1,543 nt of DNA from Escherichia coli. Lineage in GTDB: Bacteria; Pseudomonadota; Gammaproteobacteria; Enterobacterales; Enterobacteriaceae. Positions 1 through 1,543 of this stretch are shown in pieces. The stretch is taken from the NCBI RefSeq assembly GCF_003334255.1, contig NZ_QOWU01000155.1; one strand, written 5' to 3'. The position numbers were made by a program, and so were the translations under genes. The number at the start of each line of letters is the position of its first letter. Position 1 is the first letter of the stretch. The notes under the pieces were generated by a model. It saw only the letters and a program-made list of their open reading frames with translations. It was not told where the DNA came from and ran no database searches.

Positions 1-62
1 AATCGGTGGAGCTGCATGACAAAGTCATCGGGCATTATCTGAACATAAAACACTATCAATAA
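1..62 (+). CDS. Possible 3' end of an upstream protein-coding gene (partial; ...SVELHDKVIGHYLNIKHYQ*)
   Basis: Frame 3 is the only + frame open from the window edge; it runs from nt 3 to a TAA at 60..62, while the other two + frames hit stops at 17..19 and 40..42. The stop lies 21 nt before the ORF1 start, an operon-like spacing. Only 19 codons are visible, so this is weakly supported. Confidence 0.25.
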   Translation, partial: SVELHDKVIGHYLNIKHYQ

Positions 63-83
63 GTTGGAGTCATTACCGTAGAT

Positions 84-479
84 ATGAAGGGAACGAAAAA
101 CGCCTTTGGTTTAGGTTCTGCGCCTAATGGACAAAAAATTGGCGCTGCATCCATTGGTATTGACAGGTCTAATGGTGGGATTCACGCGGCGGACGATACA
201 GGTGAAATTCCTGTCGACCTGATTCAAACTGACCACTGGTCAGCAGCGCCCCCCACATGGAAAGCCTCATCTAATGGCGCATTCTGCTCGCTGACAAGTT
301 GCTCAGCAATCGAGCGCGGTTATTCTGTTGCAAAAACAGGGGAACTGACACCTGTTGCCATTACAGCGGTCACCTTCCCGTTACTGATTGATGCTGCGGT
401 AAATGACAATACTATTCTTGGTTCTGATGAAACGATCAAACTGGATGGTAACGTCACTATCAGCGTTCAGTATTTATAA
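84..479 (+). CDS. Hypothetical protein, 131 aa; possibly fimbrial-subunit-like, but no signal peptide detected
   Basis: ORF from the six-frame track. The ATG at 84 is the first start after the in-frame TAA at 60..62. GGAG at 66..69 is a possible RBS, though the 14-nt spacer is long. The protein is rich in Gly/Ala/Ser/Thr/Asn, has two close cysteines (CSLTSC) and ends in an alternating-hydrophobic strand with a penultimate Tyr (VTISVQYL), loosely like the C-terminal strand of chaperone-usher pilins. The N-terminus (MKGTKNAFGLGSAPNGQK...) is not hydrophobic and does not look like a Sec signal peptide. Confidence 0.55.
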   Translation: MKGTKNAFGLGSAPNGQKIGAASIGIDRSNGGIHAADDTGEIPVDLIQTDHWSAAPPTWKASSNGAFCSLTSCSAIERGYSVAKTGELTPVAITAVTFPLLIDAAVNDNTILGSDETIKLDGNVTISVQYL

Positions 480-650
480 GAACTTGTAATACAGTTTTTA
501 TTTTTACGCATTAACCAGTTAGCTATAACTCGGACAGATTATGCCCTATGACATGGTCTGTCTTAATCAATCTCATCGCAAACAGTGCATAACATATATT
601 AACAATATGTTTCTGCGTTATTTATCATTATTACAGGAGTTTTAATTTAA
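480..650 (+). promoter_or_regulatory. AT-rich intergenic region upstream of the chaperone gene; candidate promoter and RBS
   Basis: 171-bp non-coding, visibly AT-rich spacer. RBS AGGAG at 635..639 sits 11 nt before the ATG at 651. A candidate sigma70-like promoter is TTAACA (599..604), an 18-nt spacer, then TATCAT (623..628), but such matches arise easily by chance in AT-rich DNA. A short inverted repeat ATATT-AAC-AATAT lies at 596..608. Confidence 0.3.
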
Positions 651-1345: not shown

Positions 1346-1471
1346 ATGTTAAAAAAAACGTTACTGGCCTACACCATTGGTTTTGCCTTTTCTCCCCCAG
1401 CCAATGCAGATGGTATAGAGATTGCCGCTGTTGATTTTGATCGGGAAACATTAAAATCACTAGGTGGGTGA
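1346..1471 (+). CDS. Short signal-peptide ORF (41 aa), probably the 5' end of the next pilus gene (usher or subunit), ended by an in-frame TGA; possible pseudogene or readthrough
   Basis: ATG at 1346 lies 20 nt after the chaperone stop, with GGAG at 1334..1337 as RBS (8-nt spacer). Translation is MLKKTLLAYTIGFAFSPPANA|DGIEIAAVDFDRETLKSLGG*, a canonical Sec signal peptide with an A-x-A cleavage site. TGA is at 1469..1471. The same frame continues open from 1472 to the window end (CCQLTDLVYDGVFEVLQWLLFLSA). This ORF is not on the supplied track; I translated it by hand. Confidence 0.4.
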   Translation: MLKKTLLAYTIGFAFSPPANADGIEIAAVDFDRETLKSLGG

Positions 1472-1543
1472 TGCTGCCAACTTACTGATTTAGTGTATGA
1501 TGGTGTTTTTGAGGTGCTCCAGTGGCTTCTGTTTCTATCAGCT

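Follow-up and report, generated by a model that had tools for sequence, protein, structure and literature searches.

The gltF-yhcADEF cluster of Escherichia coli has been described as a beta-clade chaperone-usher operon in which GltF and YhcF are putative subunits (PMC5216030, PMC8174762), and the function of GltF was stated as unknown in a paper of 2021 (PMC8403718). GltF (WP_000465368.1, 254 aa, annotated as 'DUF1120 domain-containing protein', PF06551) differs from the classical pilins FimA, FimG, FimI, PapA, and PapE both in the size of the mature protein (about 229 aa versus about 150-160 aa) and in sequence, identity to them being 7-17%, and it is considered a putative subunit. IS1 generates target duplications of about 9 bp. 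The gltF fragment described here shares with the IS1 insertional pseudogenes of E. coli and Shigella the canonical ends of the 768-bp IS1A, a 9-bp duplication, and a host region of low G+C content, the only oddity being an in-frame ATG supplied by the duplication together with an insB stop in the same frame.

The stretch of E. coli DNA that was analyzed (1,543 bp, hereafter the window) contains ORF1, an ATG-started frame of 131 aa on the + strand. A sequence-only reading had offered three possibilities for ORF1: a protein that is not secreted and has nothing to do with the pilus, what is left of a pilin gene after an upstream nonsense mutation, or a novel cargo exported by another way. When the window was searched by megablast against 5,426 complete E. 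coli genomes, bases 77-1466 matched the gltF-yhcA-yhcD locus at 99.9-100% identity, and the window ends matched IS1, of which the same genomes contain tens of thousands of copies. Base-by-base comparison with an intact reference locus (NZ_CP060083.1, L001; gene order gltB, gltD, gltF, yhcA, yhcD, yhcE, yhcF) detected zero mismatches over bases 77-1466, and identity ends at base 77 on the left and at base 1466 on the right. ORF1 is 100% identical to residues 124-254 of GltF, without a single substitution, and has the same neighbours, yhcA and yhcD; it has lost residues 1-123 and most of DUF1120, which makes it a fragment and not a variant. It is almost certain that ORF1 is an ordinary gene fragment, the IS1-truncated 3' part of gltF, and not a new kind of protein. 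The gene and its cryptic fimbrial operon are both known, and a pseudogene fragment left by IS1 truncation represents an already known situation.

In the proposed sequence of events, IS1 would have transposed into gltF after nucleotide 372, duplicating the 9 bp GTAGATATG. The 5' gltF fragment would now lie beyond IS1, ending with eight IS1-encoded residues (GDAANLLI), and would keep the signal peptide, the N-terminal donor-strand region, Cys44-Cys87, and most of DUF1120. The 3' fragment starts at the in-frame Met124 codon, which by chance falls within the duplication; therefore, ORF finders report a 131-aa protein that resembles a complete ORF and has a pilin-type C-terminal strand without an export signal. 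The stop codon 21 nt 5' of ORF1 is the natural stop of insB, which falls in the same frame by chance. The layout of the window is given in Table 1.

Table 1. Features of the 1,543-bp window, with positions counted from its first base
Feature	Position	Strand	Evidence or remark
Right end of an IS1 copy	1..77	+	100% identity to 692-768 of the annotated 768-bp IS1A in L002
Last 19 codons of insB and stop	3-62, TAA 60-62	+	Within the IS1 right end, by translation
IS1 right terminal inverted repeat	about 55-77	+	ATCAATAAGTTGGAGTCATTACC
Right copy of the 9-bp target-site duplication GTAGATATG	78..86	+	Carries ATG 84-86 = gltF codon Met124 = ORF1 start
3' gltF remnant, codons 122-254 and stop	78..479	+	Zero mismatches versus L001
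ORF1, 131 aa, ATG start = GltF residues 124-254	84-479	+	ORF list; comparison with L001
gltF-yhcA intergenic region	480..650	+	Promoter-like site 599-628, 34-aa ORF 541-645
yhcA, intact periplasmic fimbrial chaperone, 224 aa	651..1325	+	NF007392, 319.7 bits (cut-off 183)
5' remnant of usher gene yhcD, 40 codons and 1 nt	1346..1466	+	Identical to L001 4270-4390; weak usher N-terminus match NF011832
Left end of second IS1 copy	1467..1543	+	Left inverted repeat GGTGATGCTGCCAACTTACTGAT...; 100% identity to IS1 positions 1-77

The first and the last base of the window (1 and 1543) both lie inside IS1 copies, and comparison with the 768-bp IS1A indicates that the two copies flanking the segment share one orientation. 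On the right, window 1465-1543 is 100% identical to L002 4503-4581 by BLAST, position 1 of IS1 being window 1467 (L002 4505). The gene 3' of ORF1 had been correctly taken for a fimbrial chaperone; it is of the PapD type, and its DNA is identical to yhcA of the reference locus (WP_001311157.1). In the spacer before it, a sigma-70-like site (TTAACA, 18 nt, TATCAT; 10/12 matches) lies 23 nt 5' of the yhcA ATG and could be a separate yhcA promoter, a suggestion based on a consensus match of a kind no commoner in the window than in shuffled sequence. The same spacer contains a small ORF on the + strand (MPYDMVCLNQSHRKQCITYINNMFLRYLSLLQEF), which is annotated as a gene in several assemblies; it had no Pfam match and is probably spurious. 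An Rfam search of the window returned no RNA family.

The description of ORF1 in the sequence-only reading proved accurate throughout. The pilin-like C-terminus with a penultimate Tyr was borne out (ORF1 ends with ...LDGNVTISVQYL), as were the Cys pair (ORF1 residues 68 and 73) and the lack of a Sec signal: the best 11-residue Kyte-Doolittle mean within the first 35 residues of ORF1 is 0.70, versus a maximum of 2.36 by the same measure in the signal peptide of full-length GltF, whose N-terminus (MFFKKNLTTAAICAALSVAAFSAMA followed by TDS) is a standard Sec signal. An exhaustive search recovered 782 cluster representatives of GltF homologues at E up to 0.001, mostly 215-260 aa in length. In an alignment of 126 homologues, three positions (C44, C87, and G245) never vary, and conservation reaches at least 90% at T248 and Y253; thus, the C-terminal pattern of ORF1 is a hallmark of the family. 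The Cys pair of ORF1 corresponds to C191/C196 of GltF, which is not conserved in the same alignment.

The donor-strand and Cys region of GltF (ELTIIGEYTPGAC44...C87), which was aligned to the N-terminus of FimG, lies entirely 5' of the IS1 break. Searching the PDB with a profile built from the GltF alignment retrieves FimG (E 5e-4) via the signal, donor-strand, and Cys region. The AlphaFold2 model of GltF, computed with the family alignment, has a pLDDT of 88.2 and a pTM of 0.81, with low confidence limited to the signal peptide and the N-terminal extension. Full-length GltF is thereby predicted to have a chaperone-usher pilin fold, and the label 'pilin-like' is well founded. A PDB search with the GltF sequence only gave spurious matches (phosphoserine aminotransferase and a designed protein), a weak serC match of GltF in NCBIfam was dismissed as being far below its cut-off, and a literature search on DUF1120 returned nothing relevant. 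As a separate observation, a protein of 2199 aa (P0031) matches residues 202-241 of GltF in 15 separate stretches, suggesting that this giant protein may contain tandem repeats of the C-terminal part of the DUF1120-family fold.

Compared with the classical pilins, ORF1 alone has the C-terminal part of the fold only. The lost residues 1-123 comprise the signal peptide, the donor-strand segment, Cys44-Cys87, and the first strands of the sandwich (44-48, 74-91, 93-99, and 114-117 of the GltF model). Pfam DUF1120 spans residues 33-146 of GltF, and the break at residue 123/124 falls inside it; the match of ORF1 is confined to the final 23 positions of the model (94-116 of 116, E 7.5e-4) because IS1 cuts the domain, so that ORF1 belongs to PF06551 as a fragment only. 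Among the features of a chaperone-usher subunit, ORF1 has the C-terminal alternating strand with a penultimate aromatic residue (...GNVTISVQYL), the incomplete Ig-like pilin fold, and adjoining genes for a chaperone and an usher (yhcA and the N-terminal part of yhcD), the usher gene being full-length in the intact reference locus. The N-terminal Sec signal and the donor strand with paired conserved Cys residues are absent in ORF1 and present in its parent.

The possibility that ORF1 is expressed by IS1 read-through or from a hybrid promoter, as a non-secreted or otherwise exported protein with a new function, is very improbable. In its favour are an in-frame ATG, an undamaged ORF1 sequence, and a GGAG in the IS1 end at a distance of 14 nt from that ATG. 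However, a consensus scan of the window found no promoter-like site at the IS1/gltF junction, and this GGAG (66-69, in the IS1 inverted repeat), the sole Shine-Dalgarno-like sequence, is poorly spaced; because of these two properties, the fragment would most likely be poorly expressed, if at all, and would not be made in useful amounts. Any product would remain in the cytoplasm and would fail to fold, as it lacks about half of the beta-sandwich strands. The conserved Cys44-Cys87 pair is missing as well. In addition, ORF1 is identical to part of an intact secreted protein and so shows nothing to suggest that it has evolved independently. An identical 131-aa ORF is likewise annotated in loci where gltF is damaged in unrelated ways, through insertion of 1 bp in L003 and loss of 19 bp in L005, and it is therefore a by-product of any upstream lesion; its sequence has been deposited in public databases under E. 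coli names, e.g., 'Uncharacterised protein [Escherichia coli]'. Neither a protein unrelated to the pilus nor a novel cargo is supported for what is a fragment of GltF, identical in sequence to its parent.

A point nonsense mutation at the TAA 5' of ORF1, with the upstream frame representing the rest of the pilin, had been suggested from two observations that were both confirmed: the TAA is in frame with ORF1, 21 nt from its ATG, and the frame before it is open back to base 3 at the window edge. The frame translates up to the stop as SVELHDKVIGHYLNIKHYQ, with which the IS1 transposase InsB ends; these 19 residues are unrelated to GltF and derive from DNA that is 100% IS1, and upstream frame and ORF1 do not make up one pilin. 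The bases before window position 77 also differ, reading ...AAAGCTTATGATACTCTC in the intact gene versus ...TAAGTTGGAGTCATTACC. Base 77 is a C in IS1 and gltF alike; the IS1 end is counted as 1-77 and gltF is unambiguous from 78. Between the insB stop and ORF1 lie seven sense codons (VGVITVD), and the frame shared by the two is coincidental; the junction resembled a nonsense mutation because of this shared frame. The earlier proposal of a broken pilin gene was right in that ORF1 is a remnant (GltF 124-254) and wrong about its cause, the nonsense mutation being refuted by the alignments to the intact locus and to IS1.

The IS1 insertion in gltF is also documented by its other side. A simple insertion with a 9-bp duplication predicts a left-side product composed of GltF 1-124 and GDAANLLI, and six contigs encode exactly this protein of 132 aa. 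On both of those retrieved (L010 and L011), gltB and gltD precede the gltF fragment, and the contig stops within the left end of IS1. The left junction on L010, in which gltF nt 1-372 is followed by IS1, reads ...CTCGTAGATATG/GGTGATGCTGCC (in a longer reading ...gatactctcGTAGATATG/GGTGATGCTGCC), and the right junction in the window reads ...CATTACC/GTAGATATG (in a longer reading ...CATTACC/GTAGATATGaaggga). Both terminal sequences of IS1 and a direct duplication of about 9 bp are present at gltF, the copies of GTAGATATG occupying window 78-86 and L010 3364-3372 in two halves that come from different contigs, possibly of different isolates.

A unique short segment between repeats typically forms its own small contig in short-read assemblies. 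The window is an exact sub-sequence (44-1586) of an E. coli contig of just 1628 bp (L006; GCA_965136505.1, CBCRYS010000177.1) that starts and stops inside IS1, as such assemblies give, but it is scarcely credible that the junction is an assembly chimera of collapsed IS1 repeats and that the real gltF is intact, as the same junction was seen in a separate, independent run (L008) and in several similar contigs and as the perfect 9-bp duplication at the reciprocal junction is not expected of a random chimera.

With regard to the distribution of these junctions, an exact-pattern scan for the IS1/gltF junction gave no match in a contig collection with one genome per species, and a junction-spanning megablast against the 5,426 complete E. 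coli genomes found the exact gltF or yhcD junction in none. Apparent 100% junction matches in complete genomes were rejected because they consisted of two separate pieces joined by the tool; in CFS3246 IS1 is located upstream of gltF, and in MB20 it occupies another site in yhcD. L010 and L011 have an identical gltF::IS1 left junction in backgrounds separated by 46 substitutions in 3 kb, mostly clustered in gltD (L001 positions 1080-1590). This pattern points either to recombination in gltBD that followed the insertion or to two insertions at one position.

The second IS1 of the window cuts yhcD right behind codon 40, and the ORF continues into the element as far as a stop at 1469-1471, so that its product has 41 aa. 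Because the usher gene is truncated in this way, the Yhc operon would be unable to assemble fimbriae here despite the intact yhcA. A metagenome scan did not turn up the partner junction of this yhcD insertion. A predicted 738-aa yhcD remnant was rejected as a junction marker since gene callers yield the same product from intact loci, and an apparent read-through of IS1 at the yhcD site in L014 was also rejected, its far flank coming from another chromosomal locus; this contig is either a metagenome chimera or a rearrangement.

At yhcD nt 121 (window 1466/1467), at least four distinguishable forms of IS1 were observed across samples (L006 and L012-L017), namely forward (GGTGATGCTGCC...), forward variant (GGTAATGGTGCC...), reverse (GGTAATGACTCCAACTTATTG...), and reverse variant (...CTTACTG...), the look-up by the 41-aa product being one that retrieves only insertions at this position. 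The occurrence of both orientations at one site is impossible by homologous recombination and implies independent insertions, so that yhcD nt 121 looks like an insertion hot spot for IS1. In two samples (L012 and L013), the yhcD::IS1 junction is at the same site, gltF is intact (254 aa), and IS1 is opposite to its orientation in the window. The usher lesion is thus commoner across samples than the gltF lesion, and perhaps older; the opposite orientation of IS1 in these samples means that they represent separate events, and the order of the two insertions in the lineage of the window is not established. The sequence left of IS1 in yhcD, ATCGGGAAACATTAAAATCACTAGGTG (window 1440-1466), resembles that of a cpdB::IS1 insertion, ATCGGCGAAAGGATTAAAAGCAGGTG (L019 1200-1226), and both flanks end with GGTG, the first four bases of IS1; this likeness may reflect either target preference or chance.

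The gltF-yhc locus decays repeatedly. Other, independent lesions include the 1-bp insertion of L003 at gltF nt ~118, the 19-bp deletion of L005 at gltF nt 233-251, an IS1 in the gltD-gltF spacer (L018, strain CFS3246), and an IS1 elsewhere in yhcD (L002, strain MB20). In addition, IS5 resides in yhcE of K-12, and a new IS5 arose in the gltF-yhcA spacer during laboratory evolution (PMC5216030, PMC8403718). In the reference locus, G+C content is 54-61% in gltBD (1-2100), 30-35% in the 560-bp gltD-gltF spacer (2101-2700), and stays at 34-50% per 300-bp segment across gltF-yhcD, which fits the idea of the fimbrial cluster as an AT-rich unit of its own that is not truly part of a gltBDF operon. This AT-richness may favour the insertion of IS1. 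A broader interpretation, which we regard as unlikely, is that the AT-rich yhc operon is a recurrent target of insertion sequences with a true IS1 hot spot at yhcD nt 121, as marked by both orientations and the IS1 variants, and that, beyond target preference, selection against the expression of beta-fimbriae could underlie the repeated loss of a functional operon in E. coli lineages.

In summary, gltF has become a pseudogene here through a textbook IS1 insertion, within an already described, cryptic fimbrial operon of E. coli, and the case has little biological weight. It carries a caution for the reading of similar frames: when a protein with a family-typical C-terminus and no signal peptide is encoded near the end of a contig, a junction with a mobile element should be checked first. 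With regard to the family, the structural model provides modest support for the view that GltF and other DUF1120 proteins are pilin-fold subunits and not regulators of glutamate synthase.
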